In this document: positions 31,765 through 53,996 of the stretch, in pieces | Layout: the number at the start of each line of letters is the position of its first letter | Numbering within the stretch: position 1 is the first letter of the stretch | Assembly (NCBI GenBank): GCA_003635185.1 | Contig: PYJA01000131.1 | Coordinates: 1,035-65,034, forward strand | Direction: 5' to 3' | From: Candidatus Poribacteria bacterium | GTDB taxonomy: Bacteria; Poribacteria; WGA-4E; WGA-3G | DNA length: 64,000 nucleotides | Notes under the pieces: model-generated | Databases searched by the model: none | Seen by the model: only the letters and a program-made list of their open reading frames with translations | Told to the model about the DNA's origin: nothing | Position numbers and translations under genes: made by a program

Positions 31765-34458
31765 TTACCTGTTTGCAGGTGGTGGTTGAATATTCAGTTC
31801 CACTGATGCTGGGATATCCAGTTCTAAATCCGGCAGTTGTTCAAGTAATTTTTCAAGTGGTTCCATATCCTGAATTGGATTTTGTCTAACTTTTAAACTC
31901 GTTAAACTTTTAAACTGTTCAATTTGACTAATGTCGTTGATTAGGTTACGGTCAACATGCAAAACACTTAACTGTGTGGCTCCAGCGATTGGTGAAATGT
32001 CTTGAATTTGATTATTTCCGAGCCCTAACTCAATCAAACGTGTTAGATTGATAAGTGGTGATATATCACTGATTTTATTACCCCAGATCACTAACTTCGT
32101 CAACAGAGTCAAGTCAGTGAAAGGTTTGATGTCACTGATTTGATTCTGCCAAGCCCATAACTCTGTTAACCGAGTCAAACCAGAAATCGGTTCTGTATCG
32201 CTAATTAGATTACCTCCGATATTTAACTCTACTAATGAAACCAATCCCGTTAGAGGTGTGATGTCATCGATCTGATTTCTATGAAGTCGTAACTTTGTCA
32301 ACTGCGTTAAGTTTGCGATCGGTTTTATGTCGGTGATCTGATTATTACTCAGCCATAACTCAGACAATTGCGTCAGTCCACCGATTGACATTATATCACT
32401 AATCTGATTTCCCCACAGCCATAACTTTCTTAACTGCGTTAAGTTTGCGATCGGTTTTATGTCGCTAATCTGATTTCCGCCGAGGGATAGTTCTGTTAAC
32501 TCTGTTAATCCACTGAGCGGTGTGAGATCGCTGATTTGATTCTCCTTGAGGTATAATCCTGTTAACTTTGTTAATCCACTGAGCGGTGTAAGATCATTGA
32601 TTTGATTCTTGCGAAGTTGCAAAGTGATTAAACCCGTTGCTTTTTCCAGCCCTGTTAAGTCTTTTATGTTTCTGTTATAAGCATGCAGCTGCTCTAATGC
32701 TGCCAACTTTTCTGGCGGGACAGTGTCGTTGCGTCCCAGACCGAGTGCTTGCCGGACAACGTTGGCTAAGTTGGCATCAGGAATTGTGGGATCCGGGGTC
32801 CCTACTTGAATATCTAATCTCAAATTCGGAAGTCGTGTTAGTAGTCTCTGAAGTGGTTTCATATCCTGAATTGGATTTCCTTTGACAGATAATCGCGTTA
32901 AACTTGTCAAATTTTCAACCGGACTGATATCTTTGATTTGATTGTTCCAGAGAGATAGATCTTTCAACTCTGTCAACCCAGAAAGTGGTTCGATATCGCT
33001 GATTTGGTTCTGAAAGAGCCATAACTTCGTTAGCTGTGTCAAATTTGTCAGTGGGGTAATGTCGCTGATTTGATTACCATACATTGATAATTCTGTGAGT
33101 TGTGTCAGTCCAGTAAGTGGTTTTATGTCGTTGATCTGATTACTTGAAAGCCATAACTGTGTGAGATCCGTCAACCCAGCAATTGGCGAGATGTTGTCAA
33201 TTTTATTTCCGCTTAGCAATAAACTACGAAGTTGTATTAGCCCATCAATTGGTTTAATGTCCCTGATTCCATTATCGTCAAGGGATAATGATGTCAACTG
33301 TGTCAATCTAGATAGGGTTTTGATATCTTTGATTTGATTTCCACTGAGGGATAAATATGTTAATTGTGTTAATCCTGTCAGGGGTGCAATGTCTTGGATC
33401 TGATTTCCGGCAAGATTTAGTAGAGTCAATTGGGTTAGATCAGCAAGAGGTGTAATGTCAGAAATCCGATTATTCAAGAGCCATAAGGTAGCCAACTGTT
33501 TCAAGTTCGCAAGTGGTGTGAGATCGCTAATCTGATTGTTCCAGAGGCGCAACCATGTCAACTTCACTAATCCAGAAAGTGATGTTATATCACTAACTTG
33601 ATTATCCATGAGAGTTAAGTCTGTTAATTGTGTCAATCCGGCGAGTGGCGTGATGTCGCTTATTTGATTGTCATCAAGCCATAATGTTGTAAGTTCGGTT
33701 AGTCCAGCAAGCGGATTGATGTCGTTAATCTGATTGTCTGTAATGTATAGTTTTTCTAATTTGGTAAATTCAGCGAGCGGTGTGATGTCGCTGATTGAAT
33801 TTTTCATTAGGAATAATTCTGTTAACTCTGTCAATCCAGTGAGTGGGGTGATATCGCTGATTTGACTTTCCCAAAGTGATAACACTCTCAATTCTGTCAA
33901 ACCTGAGAATATCGTTAAGTCGTTGATTGGATTTCCACCAATGCCTAGCTCTCTTAACTGCTTCATTCCCGCAAGTAGTGTTAAGTCGTTGATTGGATTG
34001 TTCCCAAGGAATAAATGTGTGAGTTGCGTCAAACCGGTAAAGGGCTTTATATCTCGGATTTGATTTTTGCTACACCATAACTCTGTGAGTTTCGTCAATT
34101 CAGCGAGTGGCGTTATGTCACTGATTTGATTATTCGTGAGGTTTAGTTCTGTTAGCTGCGCCAACTTAGTGAGTGGTTTGATATTACTGATTTGATTTCC
34201 TTGAAGTTCTAAAATCGTTAATCCCGTTGCTTCTCCCAGTCCCGTTAGGTCTTTTATGTGTCTCTCTTTAGCATCTAAACTCTCCAATTTTTCCAATTCC
34301 TTTTGTGGAATAGGATCCGTTGGACCTAAATCGAGTGCCTCGCGCACTGCAGCGGCTAAGTTAGCATCCGGTATTGTCACAGCATGGCTGGATGAATAAA
34401 TGAGAAAAGCGATGAGTATGATAAACATAAGACAATAATTTAGACAATAATTTTTCAT
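31765..34458 (-). CDS. Leucine-rich-repeat (internalin-like, 22-aa LRR) protein; apparent fusion of two LRR units
   Basis: Track ORF 31765..34494. I prefer ATG 34458 (MKNYCLNYCLMFIILIAF..., a signal/anchor). It has dozens of 'LTxLxxLxLxxNQIxDIxPL' repeats. An internal cap junction '...NPIQDMKPLQRLLTRLPNLRLDIQVGTPDPTIPDANLANVVRQALGL...' is present. Confidence 0.8.
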   Translation of the reverse strand: MKNYCLNYCLMFIILIAFLIYSSSHAVTIPDANLAAAVREALDLGPTDPIPQKELEKLESLDAKERHIKDLTGLGEATGLTILELQGNQISNIKPLTKLAQLTELNLTNNQISDITPLAELTKLTELWCSKNQIRDIKPFTGLTQLTHLFLGNNPINDLTLLAGMKQLRELGIGGNPINDLTIFSGLTELRVLSLWESQISDITPLTGLTELTELFLMKNSISDITPLAEFTKLEKLYITDNQINDINPLAGLTELTTLWLDDNQISDITPLAGLTQLTDLTLMDNQVSDITSLSGLVKLTWLRLWNNQISDLTPLANLKQLATLWLLNNRISDITPLADLTQLTLLNLAGNQIQDIAPLTGLTQLTYLSLSGNQIKDIKTLSRLTQLTSLSLDDNGIRDIKPIDGLIQLRSLLLSGNKIDNISPIAGLTDLTQLWLSSNQINDIKPLTGLTQLTELSMYGNQISDITPLTNLTQLTKLWLFQNQISDIEPLSGLTELKDLSLWNNQIKDISPVENLTSLTRLSVKGNPIQDMKPLQRLLTRLPNLRLDIQVGTPDPTIPDANLANVVRQALGLGRNDTVPPEKLAALEQLHAYNRNIKDLTGLEKATGLITLQLRKNQINDLTPLSGLTKLTGLYLKENQISDLTPLSGLTELTELSLGGNQISDIKPIANLTQLRKLWLWGNQISDIMSIGGLTQLSELWLSNNQITDIKPIANLTQLTKLRLHRNQIDDITPLTGLVSLVELNIGGNLISDTEPISGLTRLTELWAWQNQISDIKPFTDLTLLTKLVIWGNKISDISPLINLTRLIELGLGNNQIQDISPIAGATQLSVLHVDRNLINDISQIEQFKSLTSLKVRQNPIQDMEPLEKLLEQLPDLELDIPASVELNIQPPPANR

Positions 34459-34521
34459 CAGCGTTTCGGGCAGGAAACCCCGCTGCTTTAGCATGGGGAG
34501 GAATGCCCGCTCCTATTTTGT

Positions 34522-34551
34522 TTGACAAAACAAGTCAAGATGTGTTATAAT
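34522..34551 (+). promoter_or_regulatory. Near-consensus promoter TTGACA-18-TGtTATAAT at the left end of the TnpB remnant
   Basis: Read directly. It is followed by a ggtagaga...tctctacc hairpin and the TnpB ATG at 34646. Confidence 0.45.
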
Positions 34552-34645
34552 ATTCCCAGCATAGTTGGTAGAGAATACAATCCACGTCTCTTGACGCGGT
34601 CTCTACCACAACCGAATTGTATAGGGAACTGTGTGGATTAAAACT

Positions 34646-35355
34646 ATGCGCACCTACAAATACAAAATACGCACCCATCCTAAGAACAAACGCTTGGGAA
34701 ACATGTTTGATGACCTTGCCGATGTGCATAATCACTTTCTGAAACTTGAGAAGCGATATTACCGTATCTATGGCAAATACGCTGGCAGGTATAGAATGCA
34801 ACCACATCTTACCAAGTTGCTGAAACGCACAAAGAAACATTGGGCGTGGATACCGCGTGACACACTGGACACTGCAATTATCCGTATTGACGACGCATAC
34901 CAACGCTTTTTCAATGGTCAAGGCGGTCCCCCAAAACCCATCGGACTATCAGACAACTCGCACGACACTATAGGAAAGTTGCTAATCAACGCCTTGACTG
35001 GCAATGGAAAGTTGCAACCGACCTTTGCAGACGCTTTGATACTATCGTTACAGAAACACTTAACCTTGACGGTATGAAGCGAATCTGGGGCAGAAAGGTT
35101 TCTGACCTTGCTTTCTATCAGTTTATTCAGTTGTTGGAATTCAAGTGTGAAAAACACGATAAAACTTTCCTCAAAATCGGACAATGGACAGGGACAACAA
35201 AACCTTGTAGTCACTGCGGACACAAAAACGATAGTCTCACTCTCAATGATAGGCAGTGGATATGTCAAAACTGCAGGACTGAACACGATAGAGACATAAA
35301 CGCTGCTATCAACATTCTTCGGGGCTGCTTAGAACCCCTTGTGGAGCAGATGTAA
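34646..35355 (+). pseudogene. tnpB: Degenerate IS200/IS605-family TnpB (OrfB) with internal deletion and frameshifts
   Basis: The N-terminal piece is MRTYKYKIRTHPKNKRL...IDDAYQRFF. A third frame reads DWQWKVATDLCRRFDTIVTETLNLDGMKR. The C-terminal piece has the zinc ribbon 'CSHCGH...CQNCRTEHDRDINAAINI' (RuvC-III D). The central WED/RuvC-I region is missing and no tnpA is present. Confidence 0.75.
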
Positions 35356-35487
35356 GACGGATGTTCTCTTCAGAGAACAACGCTAACTGCTACGAAGCAC
35401 AAGCCCCAGTCTCCTTTAGGCTGTGGGTACTATGACAATGTCACCTCATTGGAAAGTCTGGTACATTAACTATACCATAATTACACC

Positions 35488-36228
35488 TTAATCTTCAATA
35501 GATGTTGTAGTAATATCCAACTCTAAATCCATCAATTTTCGGAGTGGTTCCATATCCTGAATTGGATTCTCTTTGATATTTAAACGTGTTAACCTCGTAA
35601 AGTTCGCTATAGAACGGGCATCGCTGATTTGATTTTTATCCAGCGCTAAGTGTGTCAATTGCGTTAAGTCCGCAAGCGGTGATATATCGTTAATCTGATT
35701 TCCACTTAGCCATAGGTGCGTTATCTGTTGTAAGTTAGCAAGTGAACTTAGATCGCGAAGTTGATTTCGTCTGATGTTTAACAACTGCATCTGTTGTAAG
35801 TTAGCAAGCGGCGAAATATCGCTAAGTTGATTGTCCCAAAGTCCTAATTCCGTGAGTTGTGTTAACCCTACCAAAGGTTTGATGTCAGTAATTTGATTTT
35901 TGCCAAGTCCTAATTTTGTGAGTTGTATTAATCCTGTAAGGGGTTTTATATCACTGATTCTGTTGTCCCAGAACTCTACACAAGTTAATTGCGTCAACCC
36001 AGCAATAGGCGTAATGTCACTAATCTGATTCTTCTCAAGTTCTAAAACTTTTAAACCTGTTGCTTTTTCCAATCCTGTTAGGTCTTTTATACCTTTTTGT
36101 TCGGCATGTAGTTTTTCCAATTCCGCTAACTTTTTTTGCGGAATAGAATCGTTTGGTCGCAGACCGAGTGCATCGCGCACTGAGGCAGCTAAATTGATGT
36201 CTGGCATTGTTACAGCAAAACTATTCAT
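35488..36228 (-). CDS. LRR protein lacking a signal peptide
   Basis: Track start is TTG 36258. The ATG at 36228 gives MNSFAVTMPDINLAASVRDALGL.... It has the same N-cap, LRR and C-cap ('NPIQDMEPLRKLMDLELDI') architecture as its neighbours. Confidence 0.75.
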   Translation of the reverse strand: MNSFAVTMPDINLAASVRDALGLRPNDSIPQKKLAELEKLHAEQKGIKDLTGLEKATGLKVLELEKNQISDITPIAGLTQLTCVEFWDNRISDIKPLTGLIQLTKLGLGKNQITDIKPLVGLTQLTELGLWDNQLSDISPLANLQQMQLLNIRRNQLRDLSSLANLQQITHLWLSGNQINDISPLADLTQLTHLALDKNQISDARSIANFTRLTRLNIKENPIQDMEPLRKLMDLELDITTTSIED

Positions 36229-36315
36229 CGTGTGATTCCTTTCAAAATTAATGAACAAGTGCTATCTTGTTTTCAAGATACTTCCTTGTTTTTAGCACAT
36301 AGTCTCAGAAGCAAT

Positions 36316-37251
36316 TTACTTTTTTTCGTTTGTGGCTTCAAAATCCCACTCTAAATCTGGGAGTTGTTTTATGAGTTTTAGAAGTGGTTCCATATCCTGA
36401 ATCGGATTCTCCGAAAGGTATAATTTGTCCAACTGTGTCAAATTCGTGAGCGGCTTTATGTCACTGACTTGATTCCGGGTTAGTGATAACACTTCCAATT
36501 GAGTCAAATTCGTGAGTGATTGTATGTCGCTGATTTGATTATCAGATAAGTATAACGTTGTTAACTGTGTCAACTTTGCAAGAGGTTTTATGTCACTGAT
36601 TTGATTCAACTCAATTCCTAATCTTGCCAACTGTGTCAAATCAGTAAGAATGTTTATATCACTGATCTGGTTTTTATCCAACCACAACAACTCCAACTGT
36701 GTCAACTTTGCAAGAGGTTTTATGTCGATGATTTGATTGTCAGAGATATAACACTGTGTCAACTGTATCAAGTTTGAGAGCGGTCTTATATCACTGATTT
36801 TGTTCTTGTCCAACCATAACGTTGTCAACTGTGTCAAGTTAGCAAGCGGTTCTATGTCGCTGATGTTGTTCGCAACGATGTCTAAATCCGTTAACTGCGT
36901 TAAACTCGTTAGAGGTGTTATATCACTGATCTGATTTTCACCAAGGTATAAGTATGTCAGTTGGGTTAGTTCTGTGAGAGGTGTCAAGTTCTCAATTTGA
37001 TTCTTGCGGAGTTCTAAAGTTTTTAATCCTATTGCCTTTTCCAGACCTGTTAAGTCTTTTACATTTCTGTTGTCAGCACTAAGCTTTTCTAATGCTTCAA
37101 ATTTCTTTTGTGAAATAGGATCGCTTGGACCTAAACCGAGTGCTTCGCGCACAGCTGCGGCTAAGTTGGCATCTGGTATTGTCACTTCCGGTTGAGCTGA
37201 GCAACTGAAGAAAACTATGAGTATTGCAAATAGTGTAATACAATTTTTCAT
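36316..37251 (-). CDS. Secreted LRR protein
   Basis: 311 aa with signal peptide MKNCITLFAILIVFFSCSA, the N-cap 'IPDANLAAAVREALGLGPSDPI', 22-aa LRRs and a C-cap. Confidence 0.8.
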   Translation of the reverse strand: MKNCITLFAILIVFFSCSAQPEVTIPDANLAAAVREALGLGPSDPISQKKFEALEKLSADNRNVKDLTGLEKAIGLKTLELRKNQIENLTPLTELTQLTYLYLGENQISDITPLTSLTQLTDLDIVANNISDIEPLANLTQLTTLWLDKNKISDIRPLSNLIQLTQCYISDNQIIDIKPLAKLTQLELLWLDKNQISDINILTDLTQLARLGIELNQISDIKPLAKLTQLTTLYLSDNQISDIQSLTNLTQLEVLSLTRNQVSDIKPLTNLTQLDKLYLSENPIQDMEPLLKLIKQLPDLEWDFEATNEKK

Positions 37252-37324: not shown

Positions 37325-38119
37325 TTATATTTCGGAACAAATTGATTCCAGCAACTTATTTGAAATGGCATATTCAGATTCTTCTGTGTGGTATACTTCA
37401 ACCCCACTACGAAATCGCAGATCGCCAAAAGAGGAAGACCAAAGACACTGCAAAGAATTAGACCAAATTTCTTTTCCTTCAAGACTCAAGGTGACTGGAA
37501 CAGCGTAAAGGCGGGCACTCTCTACTGTAATATCCCCTACTTCTACAAAGGGAATAATTCCGAGGCTGTCTTCATTTCCAGTTGCGATTCCTTTTTTTAG
37601 GTTCGTTGGTTGTACAGGTGCGGAGTAAGTTATCTGAATACAACCCTTTTTTCCAATGCGTGCTAGCCGGCCAATGACATGTGACTGAAATTCTTCGAGC
37701 TGTTTTACATCCGAAGAAACGATTACAAACTGCAACTGCTCTGCATAGTATTCTTGAACAGTAGCCAGTTTTTTCCCGATACCTTGACCTGTTTTCCATA
37801 CATGTGCTTCATAGTTAAATTTTAGACTACCAACGTGATTACGATAGTGAAGTCGTGAGAAGTTGCCTCCATCTGGATAAGCACCCAAGGCCCAAACTGT
37901 TTCCCAATTCGGCAGTCGATGGAGCTGACGAGGTTTAAGACCATTTTTTTCGTGCCACCGCTCACCTTCGAGTACCGCCGCAAGAAGGCCTGAGGCACTT
38001 GTTGGTGGTAAAAAGGGATAAGATTCCCATATTACATTTGACTTGTAGATGTTCCGTACCATCATCGGGCCAAGCAATATTCCATTTAAACGTAGCAAAT
38101 AGAGTTCATTAAATTTCAT
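37325..38119 (-). CDS. csc1: Putative Cas5-family subunit (Csc1-like) of a type I-D-like effector
   Basis: 264 aa. It is the last gene of the cas-like operon, with its start overlapping the upstream stop (ATGA). Its position and size match csc1. Sequence-level support is weak (glycine-rich RAMP-like segments only). Confidence 0.45.
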   Translation of the reverse strand: MKFNELYLLRLNGILLGPMMVRNIYKSNVIWESYPFLPPTSASGLLAAVLEGERWHEKNGLKPRQLHRLPNWETVWALGAYPDGGNFSRLHYRNHVGSLKFNYEAHVWKTGQGIGKKLATVQEYYAEQLQFVIVSSDVKQLEEFQSHVIGRLARIGKKGCIQITYSAPVQPTNLKKGIATGNEDSLGIIPFVEVGDITVESARLYAVPVTLSLEGKEIWSNSLQCLWSSSFGDLRFRSGVEVYHTEESEYAISNKLLESICSEI

Positions 38120-39213
38120 TTGATTGCTTCCACATAAGAATTAACATCTTTCCAAAATTCGCCAGTTTGAAGTTCATTGAGATAACTTTGCCACGCCAAT
38201 TGACAACGGCGCAGATAGCCGAGAGCCGCATTGCCTTGATAACGAGTCATCTTTATCTCACCATTTTGCTTAATAATAACGTTGTCATTACCATTAAAGG
38301 AAATATTGAACAAGCAATTAGAGTCATGCTTAACTGTAGGACTGTCATCACCTTCGCCAATTTCAAATCCCATCAACTCAAACGATGATTTGATAGACTC
38401 CTTACTTGTTGCTTCCAAAAATGGATTAATAACCTTGTGTTGATAATCCGTTTCCCAACCTGAAATCTTAGGCACATTGAGCGGGAAGATGCCATCTGAA
38501 GATTCATCAACGACGAGAATTGGAGCGTCCTTATAATCTGTTGCCCATCGTACGCCTCCTTGAGCGCGTGATGCAGCTGTGTAACGATTAGCATTCAAGT
38601 TTTCGAGCAAAGCATGTGCAAACGCTCCCAATTCCCAATCTAACACCTGCATTGCACTTGTATAGATAGGGAAATGCACACCAGCAACAATGACTTGCTC
38701 CTTGTGAATGCCAGCCTCTCCTGCTGTTGTTTGTTTCTTCTCATCAACCATATTTCGATTGTGACGATTCTGTCCTTGTTCAACGGTTTCTATAGAAACT
38801 GATGTTGGATAATGGATACGGGACTTTGCATTGATGCCGAGTTTCTTGATGACAGAATTCGCGTCTTGTGTCGTTCCGGTGAAACCATAGAGCCAGCAGG
38901 TAGGACATTGACCACACAACTGGGGAATGTAGCAATTAGTATCCTGCCAATAGCGATTTCGCATTTGGTGAATGGTACGCCTATCAACACCACGTCGTTT
39001 TGAACCTGCCCAAATGAATTTATGAACACTGTCACCATTTGGATTAAGCACCATATCTGTTTCTGTTATTGTCGTGTCAATGTCTGTTCCGTCGCCGAAG
39101 CGGACATGCCCTGATACTTCGACCATCGCGCTAATCAGAACAGTTTTCAATTTATCTGATTCGGCAGCAACACCGCTCAAGGTAGTTTTAGGGAACTGGT
39201 TTGTTTTTGCCAT
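38116..39213 (-). CDS. csc2: Putative Cas7-family backbone subunit (Csc2-like)
   Basis: 365 aa. 'CGQCPTCWLYGF' and 'NRYTAASRAQGG' resemble the 'CxxCPxCxxYGF' and 'KRYGAxxSRxG' segments I recall from Synechocystis Csc2. AAGGAG RBS. An extra C-terminal region of about 100 aa is present. Confidence 0.6.
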   Translation of the reverse strand: MAKTNQFPKTTLSGVAAESDKLKTVLISAMVEVSGHVRFGDGTDIDTTITETDMVLNPNGDSVHKFIWAGSKRRGVDRRTIHQMRNRYWQDTNCYIPQLCGQCPTCWLYGFTGTTQDANSVIKKLGINAKSRIHYPTSVSIETVEQGQNRHNRNMVDEKKQTTAGEAGIHKEQVIVAGVHFPIYTSAMQVLDWELGAFAHALLENLNANRYTAASRAQGGVRWATDYKDAPILVVDESSDGIFPLNVPKISGWETDYQHKVINPFLEATSKESIKSSFELMGFEIGEGDDSPTVKHDSNCLFNISFNGNDNVIIKQNGEIKMTRYQGNAALGYLRRCQLAWQSYLNELQTGEFWKDVNSYVEAIK

Positions 39214-39237
39214 GAAAATCTCCTTTATGATAATAGA

Positions 39238-41946
39238 TTAATTTGATTGAGATTTGGGTTGCTGACGAACATGCAACAAGAGTAAACTCAGCGTGCGGAG
39301 CTCAACTTCACGGAGAAACAGTTTCCACTGATGCATTTTGCCACGGTATTTTTCGTAATACTTCTCAAGAGCAAGCTCAAGTTGAGTCTTAGAATTATTA
39401 GCCCGGAATTGCTCCCATGCCTCAGCAGCTTCTTTTCCACTGCCCTTGGGAGATGCGGCACCGTATAAGGTTTTGAAGGCATTCTGCTTTACCCACCATT
39501 TTTCACTTCGATCAGCAGCATCAGCTTCTTGTGCCACAGCATAAAGAAAACGTGCTGCTAACCCTTTGCTAAATTCCTCTTCAATGAGATTCGTATATTT
39601 CCGAGCAACGACAGATACATTTGAACCGCTTTTATCTATCTCTGCTCGCACGAGCGGACATGCTAATTCAAATAGATATGTTGAAAAGTCAATAATATCT
39701 TGGTACAATTCAGAACTCATAGAAATACCTCCCGCGGCTTGTGCCAATTGTTTTTGATAAATCAGAATGAATTCGGATTCATAAGTTTTAAGGTCCGTCT
39801 CAAACACATCGCGCTCACGAACATCTTTTTCATCTTTACGATCTTGGGCATAACAAATTGCTCGATAAAGTGCTGTGTAAACACACCCATCGGTCAGTGC
39901 AGTCACAATTTCATAAGTAACAGCTTTCGCTTTCCCATCGGTGTTGTAATAAAAAGGTAAATTCCGAAAATGCCCTAAACCATTAGCGACAAACGGATGA
40001 ATTTCTGTCCAATTATGCGCCTCTCCTCCAACATGAACGCGCATTGATCGTTGCTGTTGTTTCATAAGATGAGGATGCGCTTTCAGCTGCAGATAAAGTT
40101 GAGTTTTAGTGTCAATTTTGCCTCTTCCACTCCTGAGTGATAGTAACAAGTAACGGTTTGGAAAAATACTCAAATTTGCTACACGATTGATAGCTTTGAG
40201 AGCTTGCAATCCAGATATGCCCCGTAAGGCTTCGTGGAGCGCAAAAAGTTCCATGTAATTATCCGTTTGGAACTCGACGATGCACATATCGTCATGCGGA
40301 TAAATTGATGACAGATATGCAACAAAAGCGCAAGAACTACAGATCGACGGTTCCTCTGTCCTTACCGGTTTGTCATAAGGAAATTTCTTTGATTCAGGCA
40401 GAAATGATTTGGTTCCTTCTAGCAAATCCACATCTGAACCACAAATGATACAACGTTTTTCACTGTCCGTTTTCATGAGGCCAACTATCTTTCTCTCATC
40501 CTCAAAAAGCGTCAATTGCTGAGTTAAGCTCGCTTGCTGTATCGTTGGAAAACTATCGGTGGATTCCATCAAGCTAAACGGCACATGAATCGACCGTTTA
40601 GGTATTTTTGTTAAGCTCAATTCCAGCTCGTTGTTCCCTACACTGATACTCTTTTTATTAATTTTCAACAAAGTTAGAATATACGCATCAGATAAATCAA
40701 GTGTCTTTAAGATATCTGACGACCAATTCTCCAATGTAATACAATATCCTTTCGGAGGCTTGGACAAACAAGGGGCAAGTTTAACAGCAAATGTTGCTTT
40801 AACAAGAAGTTCGATTGACTTACGTCGATATTCAACCGGCTTACCCCCAACAGGAATAAAGATCAATTCAGATTTACATTTTTCCTCAACTTTATCAATT
40901 AACACTGTTAAATCCAAAAGTTCTTTCTTATTGCGTTTACTCTTGACTATTTGATTTGTCTTTTCTTTCGCGTCTGTTATCAATTGTGAGAAGTGCAAAC
41001 TTGACTCACAACTTTTAACAACGAATTTTTGCAATTGACGAACATCTTTCCGGAGTTGATTATCAAAATTCTTACCTTTGTCATTCAGTTCTTTCAACCG
41101 CTGTTTTTCCTCTCTTGTTTCAGCTAATGAAGTTTGTTTGAGGCGATCATCCCACAATTCGGAAATCCGCTTTTCCTGCAGAATACCATCTTCCACATAT
41201 TCATGCAACAACTTTGCAACGATAATATCGCCAGACTCTGAGATTGATCTTCCCCCTTTGATGCATAAATCTACCACCTGATCACTTGATTCATTCGGCG
41301 CGGAATCTTGGACCGCATCACGCGAAATGAAATTTGGAATCTTGCCAGCCTGTTGTTGAAACACAGATAATTTTCTTGGAATTACCTGCTTTACTGTTTG
41401 CCACACAGCTGATTGAACGAGTGTTTCTGTCAACGGCAACGCGCCTATTCCTGGATTTCTCGGCATGGCATTGAGCGCAGCCAAAATACCATCTTTAATT
41501 GCAGTTTCAGCAATTGAGGAGTGACGGAAACCATCCCAGATTTTGTCAGCGTTTGGGAATTGCTTTGGAGACCAAAGTCGTGCAAATCCATCCGAAACCT
41601 CAATTGGAATAACTCCGTGTTCTTGGTAAAGGTACTTGAGCAAAAGTCCACTAAAAACACTATAGGCAATTCGCATACGCGGCTCAACAGGAACAGGCAT
41701 AGTCAAAAAGTGTGTTGGTTTAGGAATTTGAATTTGTTGAATTTCACCCTCACGATTGTAACGCAAGAAGTAACTGTCCTCATCTTTCGCGAAGACACCT
41801 GCTGAGCGAAGTATGCTAGTAATCTCTGTTGGTTTGAGGTTGCTTTCCTTCAACAAATTTTTGGCGGTTGCAACGGCATCCGCTGGTTGCTCAACTAGGC
41901 GCAGGAGCGTCCAAACGGCTCGCTGGATACATTGACTGCGGTTCAC
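39238..41946 (-). CDS. cas10d: Cas10d-like large subunit lacking the N-terminal HD domain
   Basis: 902 aa. GTG start overlapping the HD-gene stop (GTGA). Central zinc-ribbon 'CIICGS...(about 33 aa)...CSSCAF' and an alpha-helical C-terminus. Position between HD/Cas3' and csc2 is as in type I-D. Confidence 0.5.
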   Translation of the reverse strand: MNRSQCIQRAVWTLLRLVEQPADAVATAKNLLKESNLKPTEITSILRSAGVFAKDEDSYFLRYNREGEIQQIQIPKPTHFLTMPVPVEPRMRIAYSVFSGLLLKYLYQEHGVIPIEVSDGFARLWSPKQFPNADKIWDGFRHSSIAETAIKDGILAALNAMPRNPGIGALPLTETLVQSAVWQTVKQVIPRKLSVFQQQAGKIPNFISRDAVQDSAPNESSDQVVDLCIKGGRSISESGDIIVAKLLHEYVEDGILQEKRISELWDDRLKQTSLAETREEKQRLKELNDKGKNFDNQLRKDVRQLQKFVVKSCESSLHFSQLITDAKEKTNQIVKSKRNKKELLDLTVLIDKVEEKCKSELIFIPVGGKPVEYRRKSIELLVKATFAVKLAPCLSKPPKGYCITLENWSSDILKTLDLSDAYILTLLKINKKSISVGNNELELSLTKIPKRSIHVPFSLMESTDSFPTIQQASLTQQLTLFEDERKIVGLMKTDSEKRCIICGSDVDLLEGTKSFLPESKKFPYDKPVRTEEPSICSSCAFVAYLSSIYPHDDMCIVEFQTDNYMELFALHEALRGISGLQALKAINRVANLSIFPNRYLLLSLRSGRGKIDTKTQLYLQLKAHPHLMKQQQRSMRVHVGGEAHNWTEIHPFVANGLGHFRNLPFYYNTDGKAKAVTYEIVTALTDGCVYTALYRAICYAQDRKDEKDVRERDVFETDLKTYESEFILIYQKQLAQAAGGISMSSELYQDIIDFSTYLFELACPLVRAEIDKSGSNVSVVARKYTNLIEEEFSKGLAARFLYAVAQEADAADRSEKWWVKQNAFKTLYGAASPKGSGKEAAEAWEQFRANNSKTQLELALEKYYEKYRGKMHQWKLFLREVELRTLSLLLLHVRQQPKSQSN

Positions 41947-42803
41947 TGTTTTTTCCTTTTCATGGTTTGCATTCCATCATAGTAAAAATCTTGCAGGTAA
42001 TAGTTCACATTAAGTGTGAGTTGCTGTGACTCACAATTCAACGTTATCTGTCCAAAAACTACATTTTTATCACGTTTTACTTCGTGTACATCCCCTTCAG
42101 CCTTAAGTGTCTTTTCAGCAAAACGCCACTCCCTACGGAACTCTTTTTCTTCAACTTTTTCCAGTTGATGAACAACCTTTGTAGCCCATTCAGAAGCAAA
42201 ATGATCCGCGACAATCAGTTTATAAAGATCGTCAAGAATCTTTTGACCATGATCTGCCGCTGCTTCGACCAACCGTTCTGGACTAAAGGTATGGTGGAGG
42301 CGAATGAGGTTAATAAGATAGTCTCGTTCGCGGGGTTCCAAGTCATTGAGGAGATCCTCAGGCTGGACGGTTGAAGCATGCAAACCGAAAGGAGGCTGGA
42401 GGCGATAACCATCTATTCGTGTTTGGATGTGTTCCTTTGGTTTAGCTTTCAAGAATTGGAGGTATGCCTCTGCCGATTCATCGGGCGTAACTGACTCTAT
42501 GGTTGCCCTGCCATAAAAATCATCAGTAAGGATGCGGCGGCGTTCATCAGTCCGGTTATTCAATGTCTCAAGTTTATTTGCGTAATCAAACCTCAAGTCA
42601 ATTTTTTTTCCAATGTCGTGCCAATCCGCTGCCCTCTTGAGGTTCTCCGAGGCATCTGGGTAAAGCCAATCAAGCATCACGCGGACATGGCGGATGTGTT
42701 CTTCCACCTCAATGAGAGCAAGTTGTTTAATGGTATTCCCATTCTGAATTTGGATGATTTTGCCTGGAACGAAAATTTGTCGTAACGGAAACGGTACAGT
42801 CAT
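41943..42803 (-). CDS. Stand-alone HD-domain nuclease (Cas3''-like)
   Basis: 286 aa. Ordered HD-superfamily motifs 'EEHIRH', 'AADWHDIGK', 'GLHAS', 'LIRLHHTF' and 'VADHF'. Confidence 0.65.
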   Translation of the reverse strand: MTVPFPLRQIFVPGKIIQIQNGNTIKQLALIEVEEHIRHVRVMLDWLYPDASENLKRAADWHDIGKKIDLRFDYANKLETLNNRTDERRRILTDDFYGRATIESVTPDESAEAYLQFLKAKPKEHIQTRIDGYRLQPPFGLHASTVQPEDLLNDLEPRERDYLINLIRLHHTFSPERLVEAAADHGQKILDDLYKLIVADHFASEWATKVVHQLEKVEEKEFRREWRFAEKTLKAEGDVHEVKRDKNVVFGQITLNCESQQLTLNVNYYLQDFYYDGMQTMKRKKQ

Positions 42804-42809
42804 ATTTGA

Positions 42810-44690
42810 TTACTCTTGTTCTCGTGGTTCAAGCCACCACAGCCTAAGTTTAGTGCTTCCTTGTCTTTTCCGTAATTCTACTTCGCAACGTTTCAGGAAC
42901 GGAGATGGAGATCTACTCTTTGGAGAAACATAACGAGGAAGATAAGTGAAGCCGAAGTTTGCATCTTTGTAAATCCTGTGCTGCTGGTCAATTGGAGTCT
43001 CTGATGATAAAAGTAGGATTAGCGGCACCCCGATAGCGTAGAGTGTTGCTTCCTTATCCTCATTTTTTACCAAATACCCTGCTAATCTCAAGGTTTCACC
43101 CAAGGGTCTGTCCTTTTCTCCTCCGACTGCATAACGTAAAGTCTTATCATGGTCTGTATTATAACCTTCAAAAATCCATGCACATGCCCCTGCAATATCC
43201 GCTGCTCCACTGACAGGTATTGAATAATGTTCTTTCAATTCCTCTCCACTCCAGAATTGTTTTGCGGGAATTCCACCAATGTAACTTTCAGAATTACGTT
43301 CTTCGCTCATCACTAATGTAATTGATGGTTCCCACTGGCGGGTGATGATTACTCCTTCTTTCCAAAGTTCACGGTTTTCGCGGACAAAATCGTATATGTA
43401 TTGGTGCATTGCCTCATCTTGCTGATACTCTAATCGCTGCTTGACATTTTCGATTTCAGGTGGACTGTTCATTTTCTTGATTTCATCCTTGTGCAAGGTA
43501 TTGATTTCACTATTCACTTGTAATATCTTATCAAAGTATTCCTGCAATTGTACTATTCGCAGGTAGGATTCTGTCTCTGCCCCTTGTAGGACAACAACCT
43601 TACCTTTTTCACCTTTACGCCTTGCACATCTACCAATACGTTGAATGAAAGCATCTGGTTCACATATCTGAGTAAACATCCTTGTTGCTGATACATCAAC
43701 ACCGACCTCCATCGCTGAAGTTGTCAACAGTAGGTAAGGCTTTTTATTTTCGTCGAGACTTTTCAAATGTTCAAGTACTTTCTTACGATATGCTGGCATT
43801 TGATGCCCGTGGTAAGTGAGTATATTTCCTGTTATGCAATCATCACTGAGATGGGCAATATTGTTTTCATTTCCTCTTGCGATGAGGTTCCCCCAAATCT
43901 CCTGCAGTGTGCTTCCTGTCTGCCTTGCAATATCATCAGGTGGTGTCACACGATTGACAACAAGGATCACCCGCTCGCCTTGACAGTAAGCGTTCCACGC
44001 CACATCAATTCCCTGAGTGAAATCTTGCATTCCACCGAACAATACCTGACCACTCCGAATTTCTGTATCGGTTATGACGTTGAAGAAATCACCCTCACTA
44101 ATAGGGCGTGGGAAATACTTTCGATCTTTGTCGACTAGGGCATCAATTAGAGACGCTGGTAATGTCGCCGATAAAAGGACTGTCTGTACGTTGCGCTCAT
44201 AGGTTAACTTATGCAGAATAAACCAAAAATGCGAAAATATAATTTCGTCGTATGTATGTGCCTCATCAAAAATGAGGATTGTTTTGCGTTCATGTGAGAA
44301 AGCGATTCTGTAGGGATATAGATAAGCCCAGCGTTTGCGACCATAGGCAAATAACCGATAAAGGAACTTATCAAGACTTGTAAGGATCACATCGGCTGTA
44401 TAAAACGTCCGTTCGCTCTCGTCCCCAGTATCTACGGCGACTTTTCGGTTACTTGCAAGCTTTTCTATCCGTGGTAGTTGGTCCTGCAGAAGACTCTTTG
44501 TTGGCAGAAGTAAAATGATTCTTTTATTGGTTTCCAAAGCAGGAATCAGAGCTGCTTCTGTCTTACCACTACCTGTACCAGCGGAGATAATAGTATTTTC
44601 TCCGTTCTCTTTAATGGTATTCCAGACCAGATTTTGATACTCGTAGGACTCATGGCCTGTACGTTTTTTGAAAACTTCTCTTGGATTCAT
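42810..44690 (-). CDS. cas3: Cas3' SF2 helicase
   Basis: 626 aa. 'SAGTGSGKTEAAL' (motif I), 'TSLDKFLYR', 'IFDEAHTYD' (DEAH variant), 'LLSATLP', 'TTSAMEVGVDVS' and 'QRIGRCARR' (motif VI). Confidence 0.8.
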   Translation of the reverse strand: MNPREVFKKRTGHESYEYQNLVWNTIKENGENTIISAGTGSGKTEAALIPALETNKRIILLLPTKSLLQDQLPRIEKLASNRKVAVDTGDESERTFYTADVILTSLDKFLYRLFAYGRKRWAYLYPYRIAFSHERKTILIFDEAHTYDEIIFSHFWFILHKLTYERNVQTVLLSATLPASLIDALVDKDRKYFPRPISEGDFFNVITDTEIRSGQVLFGGMQDFTQGIDVAWNAYCQGERVILVVNRVTPPDDIARQTGSTLQEIWGNLIARGNENNIAHLSDDCITGNILTYHGHQMPAYRKKVLEHLKSLDENKKPYLLLTTSAMEVGVDVSATRMFTQICEPDAFIQRIGRCARRKGEKGKVVVLQGAETESYLRIVQLQEYFDKILQVNSEINTLHKDEIKKMNSPPEIENVKQRLEYQQDEAMHQYIYDFVRENRELWKEGVIITRQWEPSITLVMSEERNSESYIGGIPAKQFWSGEELKEHYSIPVSGAADIAGACAWIFEGYNTDHDKTLRYAVGGEKDRPLGETLRLAGYLVKNEDKEATLYAIGVPLILLLSSETPIDQQHRIYKDANFGFTYLPRYVSPKSRSPSPFLKRCEVELRKRQGSTKLRLWWLEPREQE

Positions 44691-44722: not shown

Positions 44723-44759
44723 ATGACGGTTAACAGTCATATAGACTGTTAACCGTCAT
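44723..44759. terminator. 16-bp perfect inverted repeat between the PSD1 stop and the cas3' start
   Basis: atgacggttaacagtc-atata-gactgttaaccgtcat lies 4 nt after the stop at 44764 and 33 nt before the cas3' ATG. There is no U-run. Confidence 0.45.
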
Positions 44760-44763
44760 GAAG

Positions 44764-47700
44764 TTACCCCTTATTTAAGACTTCGTCCAAATTAAGGATA
44801 AGATTTGCAATCATTGTCCAGGTAGCGACTTCGATCGCATCTAATTTCTCATCAGGTTTGGATTCACCGACAGCGATGAGTTCTTTTGCTGCTTCCGGAT
44901 CCGCTTTGAGTTCTTCTGCGTGCGCCTGCATTGTCTCAAGCAGCAGTTTTGCTTCCGCTGGTTTCGGTTCGCGGGCAGTTGCCATCTCAAAGATGTAAGC
45001 GATTCGCTCTTCTGAGGTTTGACCACCCTCTTTAATCGTCCGTTCTGCGAAAGCGCGTGCCGCTTCAACAAACTGCGGATCATTCATCAACATTAACGCC
45101 TGCATCGGTGTATTTGTGCGTTCACGGCGAATAGTGCAAGCCTCACGTGATGGCGCATCCAAGATATTCATCTGCGGTGGCGGTGCAGTTCGCTTCCAGA
45201 ACGTATAGAGACTTCGGCGATACACCTTATCAGCACCGGAATCTTTCCTAAAGGTATCTGTATTAGAACCGGTAAATCCGACCGCTTTCCAGAGACCACC
45301 CGGTTGCGGCGGCTTGACACTCGGTCCGCCGATACGTTTATATAACAACCCACTAACAGCCAAGGCGTTATCGCGCACAATTTCAGCGTCAAACCGATAC
45401 CTTGGTGCGCGGGAAAACAGCACGTTATCGGCATCGCGTTCCAATTTTTTGGGCGTAACCTTTGCACTCTGTCGGTATGTTGCCGATGTGAACATCAGTT
45501 TCTGCATTACTTGTACATCCCAGCCAGATGCCACAAATTCGGTTGCAAGCCAATCGAGAAGTTCCGGATGTGTTGGCGGTGTGCCTTGCGTGCCGAAGTC
45601 TTCTGATGTTTTCACAATACCGGTTCCGAAGATATTTTGCCAGAAACGGTTAATTGTGACACGCGCAGTAAGCGGATGTTTGCGGGAAAGCAACCATTTT
45701 GCCAGTGAAAGCCGATTTGGTGACGAACCCTTTACCATTGCCGGAAGTGCTGCGGGTGTTTGTGGATAGACCTGATCGCCTCGGTGTTGATATGCACCAC
45801 GTTCCAGAATATACGCGCCGCGTGGTTCAGATCGTTCTTGCATGACCAACGTCGTCGTAAGCGAATTATTTAACGAATTCCGCTTGTTTTGGGTATCCGC
45901 TAAATCCGCGTAGAGTTTTTTCAAATCCGCATCAATTGAAACATTTCGCCGGTAGTATTCTCGAATTTGCGTCTGTTGATCTCCGTTGCGTTTGCCTCTT
46001 TCAACCGCTATTGTGTCAACGATGTTTGCTGTTACCATCGGTGCATCAGATTCCATGCGGAAGAAAAAGCCTGATGGACCAGAATAGTTGACAACCTTTA
46101 GCAGTAAAGCGTTATTGCCCGGGTTAAGTTGAATTTGGACTTTCTCAGTATCTGGTGCAGCATCGCGTTGGATATTGCTGGCAAGCACCTCCGTCTGATT
46201 TATCCAGACCTTCAACGCATCGTTGCTACTGAGGTAAAGCGTCGCTTTCTGTTTGGTTTCAGAGGTAATGTTTCGGTAGAGATATGTCGCACTGTTTTCA
46301 CCAACAATGTCATTATGCACCTGACCGTCCTGCCAATGTGTCTGCTGTTTCCACGTCAATTCTTTTGAACCGACAGTGAATTTATCCTTTGTATTCACAG
46401 GTTTAGTTTCCGGTTCATAAACATTATAGAAGGCAATGTTGCCGTGTTCTGCGGTAAACGGACCGGCAGAATGCCAATTTCCAAGCGAGACTTTAGAACC
46501 GATCGGGTAGATCGTCGGTGCGTCTGAGACAGCAAGTCTGAACCTGCCCAGGTGATGCTTGGCGTGCTGAGATTCATGTTTAAGGCGAATCCTTAACAAC
46601 CCACCTTCTGTACCGAATGGGTTTGCGACAAGAAAGATCGCTTGCCGACTGTTGCCACGATTATTATTGCTTTCTAAGCCCCAACCGGTTTCCGGTTTGT
46701 CGTCAATCACATTCGCAATGGCGAAATCACCGCCTCCCTGCTCCTTGTCCGCCCATGCTTTTACGATGGAAACAGATGTCCAAGGGTCTTTGGGTTCAGC
46801 AGGTTCTGCTGATTCTTCAGTTTTTTCCTCAGCAGGTTGAACTTCATCAGTTTCTGGTGCCGCATCTTCAGCAGGTTCTGTAGCATCTTCGGCGGGTTTA
46901 TCTTCCACTTCTTCAGCAGGTTTCTCAGCGGGTTGAACCTTGTCAGTTTCTGGTGCCGCATCTTCAGCAGGTTTCTCTTCATCAGTTGGTGCTGCTTCTT
47001 CAGCGGGTTGCGTTTCATCAGTTAACGCCGCCTCTTCAGCTGCTTTTGCCTCTTCAGCTGCCTTAGCTTCTGCGGCTGCTTTTGCCGCTGCGGCAGCCTT
47101 AGCTGCTTCAACCGCCTTTTGTGCTGCTTCCTTAGCAGCATTAAGCTCTTGCTCTGCATTTGCAGCGGGGACAATATCAACAGAAAATCCTGTCAAAACC
47201 ACATTGCTATTGTCACTGCGCCCGATACCACTGCCCGGCAAGGATTTGTCAGGAATACCTTCCAATCGCACGGCACTCCATTTACCGGCAGGCAGTTTTG
47301 CAATAACTTCATAGACCTCTTTGTCAGGATTTTCACCACTTGCCAAAACAGAATTATCATCACGGATTTCAACCGTTGCGCCCCCTTGTGAAAGGACAAC
47401 CTCTGGTTTGATAAGTGTCCACCGCGGCATCCTGTTTTCCCATGCAGTTTGGGCAGCATCAACCAGCGGCAATGGTCCCTTACTCCGTGTGTCTAAGTCT
47501 TTGATCTGGTCATCATATTTTGCGAGTTGTGCCTTCTGCTCTGGTGTCGGCAACTTCACAACAGGAGGCGAATCCTTGCGGTTGCCATCCATCGCATTTT
47601 CGGTGATATTGTTGAAATAGGCAAAGAGTTGATAGTATTCTTTCTGTGAAATCGGGTCATATTTATGGTCGTGGCACTGCGCGCAGGCAGCGGTTAAGCC

Positions 47701-48705
47701 CATCCAGACGGTTGATGTCGTATTAACTCTGTCAACAGCGTATCGGACGTAGTATTCCTCAGCGATAGAACCGCCTTCGCTTGTTGTGACGTGGCATCGG
47801 TTGAAACCTGTAGCGACACGTTGATCAACGGTTGGTTCAGGTAACAGATCACCCGCCAACTGTTCAATCGTAAACTCGTCAAACGGCATCTTATTATTAA
47901 ATGCCTTAATCACCCAATCCCTATAAGGCCACATTTCGCGATAGTTGTCTAAATGTAGTCCGTGCGTATCGCCATAACGTGCCACATCTAACCAGAAGCG
48001 CGCCATGTGTTCGCCATATTCGGGTTTTGCCATGAAGGTATCAATCAGTTTTTCGTAAGCATCAGGTGAATCGTCCGCGAGGAATTGGTATATTTCTTCA
48101 CGGGTTGGTGGTAAACCGGTCAGGTCAAAACTTAAGCGGCGGATGAGGGTGCGTCTATCCGCTTCTTTGGCGGGTTGCAGTCCTTCTTTTTCAAGACGTG
48201 CTAAGATAAACGCATCAATTGGGTTTCGTGCCCAATCTTTGTTTTTCACAGTGGGTAGCGTTGGACGAATAGGTGTGGTGAATGCCCAATGTTCCTCCCA
48301 TTGTGCCCCTTCGCTTATCCACTGTTTGATGGTTTCTATTTGCTCTGGTGTTAACGTTTTATTAAAATCTGCTGGTGGCATCTGACGACTGTCGTCATCA
48401 GAGGTGATACGGAGGTAGAGTTCGCTTTCATCTGGCTTTTGAGGAACGAGAATCGGATACCCGCTCGGTTCAGAAAACGCGCCTTCCTTTGTATCAAGTC
48501 GTAGGTTTGCCTGTCGAGTCTTTTCGTCTGGACCGTGGCAGGCGAAACAGTTGTCTGCTAAAATAGGACGAATGTCCTTGCTATAATTAACGGTTGTTTG
48601 TAGGGTTTCGTGGTTATCCGCGGATGCAAAGGGAAGTCCTAACATCACGATAGATAAATAGACTAACATTGCAGTTAGTGGAATGGAACTTTTAGCACTT
48701 TTCAC
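44764..48705 (-). CDS. PSCyt/DUF1549/DUF1553 (PSD1-type) large secreted protein with Ala/Glu/Pro-rich insert
   Basis: 1313 aa. N-terminal heme-like 'CFACHGPD' (planctomycete cytochrome c domain), 'CAQCHDHKYDP' (DUF1549 region) and a DUF1553-like C-terminus. Low-complexity AAKAAAEAKAAEE/PAEDAAPETD repeats lie at about 46790-47160. Confidence 0.85.
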   Translation of the reverse strand: MKSAKSSIPLTAMLVYLSIVMLGLPFASADNHETLQTTVNYSKDIRPILADNCFACHGPDEKTRQANLRLDTKEGAFSEPSGYPILVPQKPDESELYLRITSDDDSRQMPPADFNKTLTPEQIETIKQWISEGAQWEEHWAFTTPIRPTLPTVKNKDWARNPIDAFILARLEKEGLQPAKEADRRTLIRRLSFDLTGLPPTREEIYQFLADDSPDAYEKLIDTFMAKPEYGEHMARFWLDVARYGDTHGLHLDNYREMWPYRDWVIKAFNNKMPFDEFTIEQLAGDLLPEPTVDQRVATGFNRCHVTTSEGGSIAEEYYVRYAVDRVNTTSTVWMGLTAACAQCHDHKYDPISQKEYYQLFAYFNNITENAMDGNRKDSPPVVKLPTPEQKAQLAKYDDQIKDLDTRSKGPLPLVDAAQTAWENRMPRWTLIKPEVVLSQGGATVEIRDDNSVLASGENPDKEVYEVIAKLPAGKWSAVRLEGIPDKSLPGSGIGRSDNSNVVLTGFSVDIVPAANAEQELNAAKEAAQKAVEAAKAAAAAKAAAEAKAAEEAKAAEEAALTDETQPAEEAAPTDEEKPAEDAAPETDKVQPAEKPAEEVEDKPAEDATEPAEDAAPETDEVQPAEEKTEESAEPAEPKDPWTSVSIVKAWADKEQGGGDFAIANVIDDKPETGWGLESNNNRGNSRQAIFLVANPFGTEGGLLRIRLKHESQHAKHHLGRFRLAVSDAPTIYPIGSKVSLGNWHSAGPFTAEHGNIAFYNVYEPETKPVNTKDKFTVGSKELTWKQQTHWQDGQVHNDIVGENSATYLYRNITSETKQKATLYLSSNDALKVWINQTEVLASNIQRDAAPDTEKVQIQLNPGNNALLLKVVNYSGPSGFFFRMESDAPMVTANIVDTIAVERGKRNGDQQTQIREYYRRNVSIDADLKKLYADLADTQNKRNSLNNSLTTTLVMQERSEPRGAYILERGAYQHRGDQVYPQTPAALPAMVKGSSPNRLSLAKWLLSRKHPLTARVTINRFWQNIFGTGIVKTSEDFGTQGTPPTHPELLDWLATEFVASGWDVQVMQKLMFTSATYRQSAKVTPKKLERDADNVLFSRAPRYRFDAEIVRDNALAVSGLLYKRIGGPSVKPPQPGGLWKAVGFTGSNTDTFRKDSGADKVYRRSLYTFWKRTAPPPQMNILDAPSREACTIRRERTNTPMQALMLMNDPQFVEAARAFAERTIKEGGQTSEERIAYIFEMATAREPKPAEAKLLLETMQAHAEELKADPEAAKELIAVGESKPDEKLDAIEVATWTMIANLILNLDEVLNKG

Positions 48706-53755: not shown

Positions 53756-53849
53756 TTTAGTTTCTCCTTGTGGCTATCCAACGTAACGACTTGTGCCAGT
53801 TAACTAATTGTTTGTCCTATTTTCACATATATTGAACTTTATGTTGGAC

Positions 53850-53925: not shown

Positions 53926-53996
53926 AGCGTCTCAATTAATGAAGGATATGCGGACAAACCCTTATTTATGTGAAGCAATTGGTTACTAAAAGTTAT

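Follow-up and report, generated by a model that had tools for sequence, protein, structure and literature searches.

The defining feature of CRISPR-Cas subtype I-D is the fusion of an HD nuclease domain to the N-terminus of the large subunit, Cas10d (PMC10212523, PMC7689449), and a published scenario holds that the HD domain left Cas10d of type I-D and joined Cas3 in the other type I systems (PMC10212523). The I-D loci of Synechocystis and Sulfolobus have the order cas3'-cas10d-csc2-csc1-cas6-cas4-cas1-cas2, and the Cascade complex of this subtype is represented by structure entry 7SBA. Internal translation of Cas11 has been demonstrated in types I-D, I-B and I-C, the products being known as Cas11d, Cas11b and Cas11c (bioRxiv 10.1101/2020.04.18.045682). 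Effectors encoded without an array, adaptation genes and Cas6 of their own have also been described. They include III-G, for which recruitment of CRISPR RNAs (crRNAs) in trans is the accepted reading (PMC12669027), many type III loci, and the I-D system of Thermofilum pendens, which lacks cas4 and cas6 and for which borrowing has been suggested (PMC10212523). When a type I effector has Cas3 but lacks array, Cas6 and adaptation genes, it tends to be written off as a remnant. We describe here one such operon, located in a 64-kb stretch (the window) of contig PYJA01000131.1 (67.8 kb), which belongs to a metagenome-assembled genome (MAG) of Candidatus Poribacteria, a sponge symbiont. Whereas the described borrowers are mostly type III, this operon is a type I module with both Cas3' and an HD protein, and it occupies a fixed, non-defence site; no Cas3'-retaining type I module held under selection at a fixed site across a symbiont clade is described in the literature searched.

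The window carries five intact open reading frames (ORFs), all on the minus strand and packed into positions 37325-44690 (Table 1). The ORF list bore out what an earlier model reading of the sequence alone (hereafter, the sequence-only reading) had reported of them. The cas3' and HD genes are separated by a 6-nt gap and the large-subunit gene and cas7 by a 24-nt gap, while the HD and large-subunit genes overlap by 4 nt (GTGA), as do cas7 and cas5 (ATGA). The translations contain the motifs that had been quoted, namely AGTGSGKT, TSLDKF, FDEAH, LLSATLP and QRIGRCARR in Cas3', EEHIRH, DWHDIGK and RLHHTF in the HD protein, the ribbon CIICGS...CSSCAF in the large subunit, and CGQCPTCWLYGF together with NRYTAASRAQGG in the 365-aa Cas7.

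Cas profiles (NCBIfam, Pfam, PADLOC) matched all five proteins, and judged by these matches the module is a Cas3/Cascade interference operon of type I, in agreement with the sequence-only reading. The type I signature, the Cas3 helicase of superfamily 2 (SF2), reached 116.6 bits with NCBIfam cas3_core (cutoff 102.45) and also matched Pfam DEAD and Cas3-like_C_2, as well as PADLOC Cas3d (PDLC01196, 1201.7 bits) over its full length. No HD domain was found in Cas3' by profile searches, and NCBIfam cas3_cyano scored 53.7 bits, under its cutoff of 69.1. The top PDB sequence matches of Cas3', 7r2k and 7tr8, are deposited as "CRISPR-associated helicase Cas3", and we take them to be type I-A entries. 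Cas5, Cas7 and the large subunit are encoded together with the helicase. Cas7 matched Pfam Csc2 (PF18320) with 35 bits, above the cutoff of 25.5, and NCBIfam cas_Csc2 with 30 bits, under the cutoff of 38; it was also matched by PADLOC Cas7b (74 bits) and three Cas7d profiles, and its profile gave weak PDB matches to 7sba_A, a Cas7d (E 0.17), and to Csm3. Cas5 matched PADLOC Cas5b (PDLC01198, 490 bits) over its full length, and the independent PADLOC profiles PDLC01389 (E 4e-9) and PDLC01306 Cas5 (E 2.4e-4). It had no match in Pfam, NCBIfam or PDB, and hence no Csc1 match in the first two. Taken with the large subunit, discussed below, profile searches thus assigned the 365-, 264- and 902-aa proteins to Cas7, Cas5 and Cas8 profiles, a check that had been proposed along with the original identification.

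The large subunit matched PADLOC Cas8b (PDLC01203) with 246.8 bits and had no PDB match by sequence or profile. An AlphaFold2 model was built on 22 homologs (mean predicted local distance difference test score, pLDDT, of 67.7) and compared with PDB by Foldseek. The sole meaningful match was 7sba_I (probability 0.99, E 1.2e-3), the next one having E>1, and no solved Cas8b structure was matched; the alignment with 7sba_I runs end to end, but with a template modelling (TM) score of only 0.28. This entry is an 899-residue chain of a type I-D Cascade, taken to be Cas10d from its length, and the fold comparison therefore points to a large subunit of the Cas10d type. The four cysteines of a CxxC...CxxC ribbon (C499, C502, C536 and C539) occupy invariant columns of the family alignment. 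In a subfamily of the lineage, the JGI metagenome loci L026-L032, the tblastn match to the large subunit covers only about 650-700 aa, which suggests that the 902-aa protein has a dispensable or variable N-terminal third; this short form probably corresponds to the 688-position "Cas8b" profile PDLC01203.

The large-subunit gene is also predicted to encode a sixth product, an internally translated Cas11, which in the window would be 160 aa long. Each of the 14 loci examined has an in-frame start (ATG in eight, GTG in six) from which 155-162 codons remain to the end of the large-subunit gene, and in all 14, which come from three deep clades, an invariant GGAGG stands 7 nt ahead of it. The two glycines at this place, G739 and G740, are invariant in the alignment, and since the Gly-Gly dipeptide is always encoded GGA-GGN, the invariance extends to synonymous positions. 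An internal start of this kind is what type I-D, with its Cas11d, would be expected to have, but it is common to types I-B and I-C.

In the free-standing HD protein, residues H36, H39, H62-D63, K66-K67, H142, H170-H171, D200 and S204 are invariant across 11 loci, and presumably correspond to motifs I-V of the Cas3 HD domain (HDxGK, HH, ADxxAS). Profile support was modest: PADLOC Cas3-HD matched the protein weakly (E 6.9e-4), Pfam HD matched five of the 11 family members (best E 3.4e-5), and cas3_HD matched two, only at E 0.1. The sequence-only reading had also proposed structural comparison; this succeeded for the large subunit, as described above, but the HD protein had no significant Foldseek match in PDB despite a confident AlphaFold2 model (pLDDT 89), and searches of PDB with its sequence or profile also gave no match. 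Its assignment as a putative Cas3''-type nuclease consequently rests on its motifs and gene context. The HD gene lies between cas3' and the large-subunit gene in 37 of 37 tabulated loci (the window, L001-L017 and L018-L036). Four more loci were fetched later, among which L040 and L041 have the identical gene order with a separate HD gene, and L039 has an HD gene broken into pieces of 161, 149 and 39 aa. Only 14 representative clusters of the HD protein were found among 1.84 billion representative proteins; these span 122-330 aa, the shortest being probably fragments, and were joined by one marginal 576-aa match. No homolog fused to a Cas10d- or Cas3'-sized protein was found in that set. The HD domain at the N-terminus of Cas10d, which defines type I-D, is thus replaced by a separate gene in all 37 loci. 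The sequence-only reading had recognized this separate gene; the split HD is not peculiar to the window but is fixed throughout a rare lineage.

That lineage is very rare. The large subunit forms only 28 clusters among 5.8 billion proteins. Still, some 40 public loci share the block of five genes, and together with the Cas profile matches of all five proteins this makes the arrangement more than chance. Its hosts belong to Binatia, Nitrospiraceae, Acidobacteriota, Anaerolineae and Poribacteria. With the exception of a single Poribacteria clade, almost all loci with enough flanking sequence are complete CRISPR-Cas systems, including loci in other phyla and in other Poribacteria. These complete relatives carry Cas6, Cas1-Cas2-Cas4 and an array, often with a WYL regulator, and their arrays consist of 37-nt repeats spaced about 72-76 nt from start to start, all ending in ACTGAAAG. 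Because its complete relatives are equipped in this way, we regard the module as a bona fide crRNA-guided effector. Two loci depart from completeness, namely L007 (Binatia), which adjoins type III genes, and L012 (Candidatus Acidiferrales). The latter, on a 77-kb contig, is another operon reduced to the five genes, independent of those in Poribacteria and from another phylum. Cas6, Cas1-2-4 and an array are all missing within 10 kb of it, and the genes directly upstream encode an SNF2-family helicase of 1032 aa and an unknown protein of 521 aa. Within Poribacteria, the array-bearing loci are repeatedly damaged and the bare operons are all intact. In the complete loci L003, L011 and L039, cas1 is interrupted by a Y1 transposase gene of the IS200/IS605 type. 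Sample ERZ21830300 is the source both of L039, which is on a 268-kb contig of its own, and of the bare loci L001 and L014.

With respect to subtype, the similarities to type I-D are a helicase-only Cas3', a large-subunit fold that matches 7sba_I, a Csc2-like Cas7, a predicted internal start for Cas11, the order cas3'-(HD)-large subunit-cas7-cas5, and the 37-nt repeats of the complete relatives with their common ACTGAAAG ending; the Synechocystis I-D handle is, we assume, ACUGAAAC. In contrast to type I-D, HD is here a separate 286-aa gene, the NCBIfam I-D equivalogs were not reached, PADLOC gives I-B labels to the large subunit, Cas7 and Cas5 (and a I-D label to Cas3), and the window locus is without Cas6, adaptation genes and array. 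Likeness to type I-B lies in the PADLOC labels Cas8b (247 bits), Cas7b (74 bits) and Cas5b (490 bits), in the names Cas1b and Cas2b that PADLOC assigns to adaptation genes of L004, a complete relative, in the internally translated Cas11 of I-B, and in a WYL-Cas6 pair shared with the I-B system of L037. However, canonical I-B has HD fused to Cas3 and a DevR-type Cas7 (as in L037), whereas the operon described here has a free HD, a Csc2-like Cas7 and a Cas10d-like large subunit. Type I-A also encodes helicase and HD nuclease separately and side by side, but it has a separate cas11 (csa5), Cas8a and other Cas7 and Cas5 families, none of which was seen here. The I-B label itself is partly circular, because the top PADLOC profiles were apparently derived from members of the lineage itself. 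PADLOC Cas5b gave 490 bits on the window Cas5 against about 246 on the Cas5 of L004, from which we infer that a close relative of the bare clade is already in the PADLOC set, labelled partly I-B and partly I-D. The I-D-like character proposed in the sequence-only reading was therefore upheld by the 7sba_I fold, the Csc2-like Cas7 and the 37-nt repeats, but with the PADLOC I-B labels the profile and fold matches leave the subtype ambiguous between I-D and I-B. Overall, the lineage combines I-D-like effector proteins, a free putative Cas3'' and I-B-like accessory modules, a split-HD I-D/I-B variant of which neither the 2025 classification paper nor the I-D review gives a description. Its protein families are already captured by existing Cas profiles; its architecture and the stable, selected array-less state described below are absent from the literature searched. 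Current annotation misses the lineage because it is very rare and because NCBI calls four of the five proteins hypothetical.

The Poribacteria clade that departs from this pattern comprises seven loci with five genes only, hereafter bare (the window, L001, L002, L014, L015, L016 and L017). Their large subunits are 70-86% identical, and in a tree of Cas3' and Cas7 they are monophyletic (100/100 bootstrap) and constitute a deep branch, of which the family has about three. The assembled upstream neighbour is a PSCyt1/PSCyt2/PSD1 gene in the window, L001, L002, L014 and L017, and on the downstream side a DUF1501 gene is the immediate neighbour in L001, L002 and L015 and is set off by inserted genes in the window and in L014; the operon has the same orientation as these flanking genes. 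Three of the bare loci lie inside contigs of 3,943,163, 4,242,156 and 6,749,164 bp (ERZ21830300 ctg717551l and ctg717569l, and ERZ26694896 ctg118107, respectively).

The sequence-only reading had stated that array, Cas6 and adaptation genes are absent from the window, and every search made there agreed. A repeat finder, Tandem Repeats Finder and a k-mer array finder detected no CRISPR array in the 64 kb, exact and degenerate searches for the cognate repeat returned nothing, and Cas6, Cas1, Cas2 and Cas4 of complete relatives gave zero tblastn matches. In the six orthologous bare loci, no array, Cas6 or Cas1-Cas2(-Cas4) was present within 10 kb, so that none of the seven has the adjacent parts of a complete locus. 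A covariance model of six cognate repeats was also applied, unfiltered to the window and at default filter settings to the bare loci. Its only hit, at 49419-49455 (17 bits, E about 0.04), was rejected as a single copy inside a YhgA-like transposase ORF; this gene (Transposase_31, 49126-50217, minus strand) also holds a 12-nt tandem repeat at 49299-49358. Two further candidates proved not to be arrays: the 66-nt periodic repeats at 32-37 kb are leucine-rich repeat (LRR) coding repeats, and the palindromic units at 9413-9588 and 53835-53926 resemble repetitive extragenic palindromic (REP) elements. The REP-like units have the core GTCCCGTAGGGAC, are about 26 nt long and are spaced by 51 nt, with two direct and two inverted copies at the first site and, at the second, two copies between a PhyH-like gene (52703-53755) and an N6/N4 DNA methyltransferase gene.

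To evaluate constraint, pairwise dN/dS was calculated by the Nei-Gojobori method (NG86) among the window, L001 and L002, and all five genes are under purifying selection, with dN/dS of 0.12-0.26 (Table 1). Moreover, residues invariant in two array-bearing clades were examined in all six bare sequences, where 72-86% of them are kept, against 64-91% in the reciprocal controls; there is thus no sign of relaxed or redirected constraint in the bare clade. Together, these two results sustain the view of the sequence-only reading that the operon is not in simple decay. Between the window and L001 or L002, dS is 0.3-0.75 in the cas genes and 1.6-2.2 in the flanking PSCyt and DUF1501 genes, that is, 3-5 times lower in the former. 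In the flanking genes, L001 and L002 are mutually closest, whereas the window is nearest to L001 in Cas3', large subunit and Cas7, and nearest to L002 in Cas5. The drop in dS and the discordant gene trees suggest that the cassette, or parts of it, has been exchanged among Poribacteria lineages, possibly by homologous recombination at the conserved site. Such exchange fits with continued selection for the cassette.

A structure scan placed a hairpin with a 16-bp stem and a 5-nt loop just upstream of the operon (Table 1). It is conserved in five bare loci, where 98.5% of cells are paired and two pairs are compensatory once the register is corrected, and it starts 3-5 nt past the PSCyt/PSD1 stop and ends about 33 nt short of the cas3' start. 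The element is possibly a terminator, attenuator or operator governing entry into the operon. As it leaves almost no room for a dedicated promoter, cas expression may depend on read-through or attenuation. This hairpin also accounts for the conserved upstream intergenic DNA, which had been considered as a source of cr-like RNA and was rejected as such; a second candidate, about 60 conserved nt downstream of cas5, was rejected for want of meaningful structure (-1.9 kcal/mol).

Having no local array, Cas6 or acquisition genes, the bare operon must either obtain its guides from elsewhere or have acquired a new function. We lean, without strong conviction, towards the first option, a working crRNA-guided interference module whose guides and processing are supplied in trans. 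Cas5, several copies of Cas7, the large subunit and Cas11 would assemble on crRNAs made elsewhere in the genome, after cleavage of the pre-crRNA by Cas6 or another RNase encoded in trans; the assembled complex would form an R-loop on matching DNA and recruit Cas3' and Cas3'', which would nick and unwind the target. Trans supply is made plausible by several observations. In L037, a genome from a Poribacteria sample, a WYL-Cas6 pair like that of the lineage stands next to a canonical I-B effector, and L038 has a solo cas6 (10001-10957), the only cas gene in its surroundings out to 10 kb. Cas6 of the cognate family is also abundant, with 1646 matches against 28 for the large subunit, and III-G and the Thermofilum system set a precedent. 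If such crRNAs exist, they should be RNAs of about 40-50 nt with the 8-nt handle ACUGAAAG, and if the guides come from other loci, the sharing of modules known from type III would extend to type I. Beside the L037 cas3, on its upstream side, we also noted a two-copy 60-nt element (13308-13458) containing CTTTCAG, the reverse complement of the handle sequence CTGAAAG, which might be a cr-like RNA.

Several results weigh against the favoured explanation. No source of crRNA was found in the window, nor at the other bare loci out to 10 kb. The best 120 of the 1646 Cas6 matches, with identities as low as 49%, all fall outside the three megabase contigs with bare operons, and among the matches listed, the Cas6 cluster members that were checked are off these contigs as well; for the cognate Cas6 family, to which the search was confined, this is weak evidence against its presence in these genomes. 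Moreover, with a terminator-like hairpin immediately upstream, the promoter of the operon is undefined, and the fold of the putative nuclease lacks a structural match, as noted above.

A rival explanation is exaptation, in which Cas3-Cascade would have been domesticated for a CRISPR-independent or non-canonical role, e.g., host gene regulation or genome maintenance. A variant would have it guided by a non-CRISPR RNA or a single distant cr-like RNA, or kept by a CreTA-like addiction module. The fixation of the operon at one non-defence chromosomal site across seven loci, oriented like its flanking genes and under purifying selection, fits this explanation, as do the local absence of array, Cas6 and adaptation genes, the absence of a close cognate Cas6 from the megabase contigs among the matches listed, and the integrity of the bare operons where array-bearing Poribacteria loci (L003, L011, L039) are often damaged. 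Nevertheless, family-invariant residues are preserved in the bare clade to the same degree as between array-bearing clades; the motifs of helicase and nuclease are still present, and so is the Cas11 start. Exaptation as a regulator should have entailed the loss of Cas3, which is what happened in the transposon-associated type I variants (PMC12669027), and no conserved cr-like RNA was found next to the operon. We therefore consider exaptation rather unlikely. The bolder version, in which the Poribacteria clade domesticated a full Cas3-Cascade with no array or Cas6 anywhere in the genome and with a non-CRISPR guide or a role in the host or the symbiosis, while the lineage would separately be a living intermediate on the way from I-D to I-B or other type I systems, we hold to be doubtful as a whole. 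With regard to its second part, the order cas3'-cas3''-Cas10d-like with an internal Cas11 start is the arrangement expected of an intermediate in HD transfer, as far as gene order and predicted starts can tell. Whether the trans-supplied interference that we favour or exaptation applies, the bare clade offers a clean natural test case, either for the use of crRNAs in trans by type I or for the exaptation of an intact Cas3-Cascade, and guides that turned out not to derive from CRISPR would represent a new mode of RNA-guided DNA targeting.

A less probable explanation still is that of a non-functional remnant, left when array, Cas6 and adaptation genes were deleted from a complete locus and as yet undecayed. 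Loss of parts is common in the family (Cas1 in L003, L011 and L039, HD in L039, and the bare L012), but the five ORFs are intact in seven diverged loci, and dN/dS is only 0.12-0.26 even though dS rises to 0.3-0.75, a divergence over which neutral decay would have brought stops and frameshifts. The internal Shine-Dalgarno sequence, constrained at synonymous positions, and the catalytic motifs are also kept, and we judge this explanation to be very unlikely. Finally, an ordinary complete locus cut from an adjacent cas6-cas4-cas1-cas2-array block by an assembly or binning break, which the sequence-only reading had named as what would overturn it, could be suspected for a 67.8-kb MAG contig, since repeats often break assemblies, but it is rejected, with next to no probability left, because 19 kb and 37 kb separate the operon from the two ends of the window and orthologous bare operons with the same flanks sit deep inside the three megabase contigs.

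Table 1. Features of the array-less operon in the 64-kb window, with pairwise dN/dS (window, L001 and L002) and the share of residues invariant in two array-bearing clades that is kept in the bare sequences.
Feature	Position	Strand	Accession or basis	dN/dS	Residues kept
cas3', SF2 helicase-only Cas3, 626 aa	42810..44690	-	RKU07571.1, NCBI name Cas3'	0.15-0.17	82%
Free-standing HD protein, putative Cas3'' nuclease, 286 aa	41943..42803	-	RKU07570.1, NCBI "hypothetical protein"	0.21-0.26	75%
Large subunit, Cas10d-like without HD domain, 902 aa, GTG start	39238..41946	-	RKU07569.1, "hypothetical protein"	0.18-0.25	72%
Predicted internal cas11 ORF, 160 aa, from M743 of the large subunit	39238..39720	-	in-frame start		
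Shine-Dalgarno GGAGG of predicted cas11	39728..39732	-	7 nt 5' of ATG 39718-39720		
cas7, Csc2-like backbone subunit, 365 aa	38116..39213	-	RKU07568.1, "hypothetical protein"	0.12-0.20	86%
cas5, 264 aa	37325..38119	-	RKU07567.1, "hypothetical protein"	0.16-0.22	72%
Terminator-like hairpin, PSCyt/PSD1 stop to cas3' start	44723..44759	-	structure scan and conservation		

The surroundings of the operon were also inspected. Between cas5 and the DUF1501 gene, the window holds an insert (31765-37251) that is lacking in L001, L002 and L015. It contains three eukaryote-like LRR genes (31765-34494, 35488-36258 and 36316-37251) and a degraded TnpB/Cas12f-like gene (34631-35355), split into 148 and 93 aa and matched by the TNB profile with E 4.5e-22; L014 has a different insert, of 1091 aa, at the same spot. 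Mobile elements and eukaryote-like features are typical of sponge symbionts. On the upstream side, no further cas genes were found among the neighbours in the window, which include an orphan N6_N4 DNA methyltransferase gene (53997-55049) and a gene for a large WD40 beta-propeller protein (59487-61730), both on the minus strand. The PSCyt1/PSCyt2/PSD1 protein next to the operon is 1313 aa long (gene 44764-48705), and its gene contains, at 46795-47094, low-complexity tandem repeats of 18-36 nt rich in Ala, Glu, Pro and Lys codons, which look like a variable linker because L002 has similar repeats at the equivalent place.

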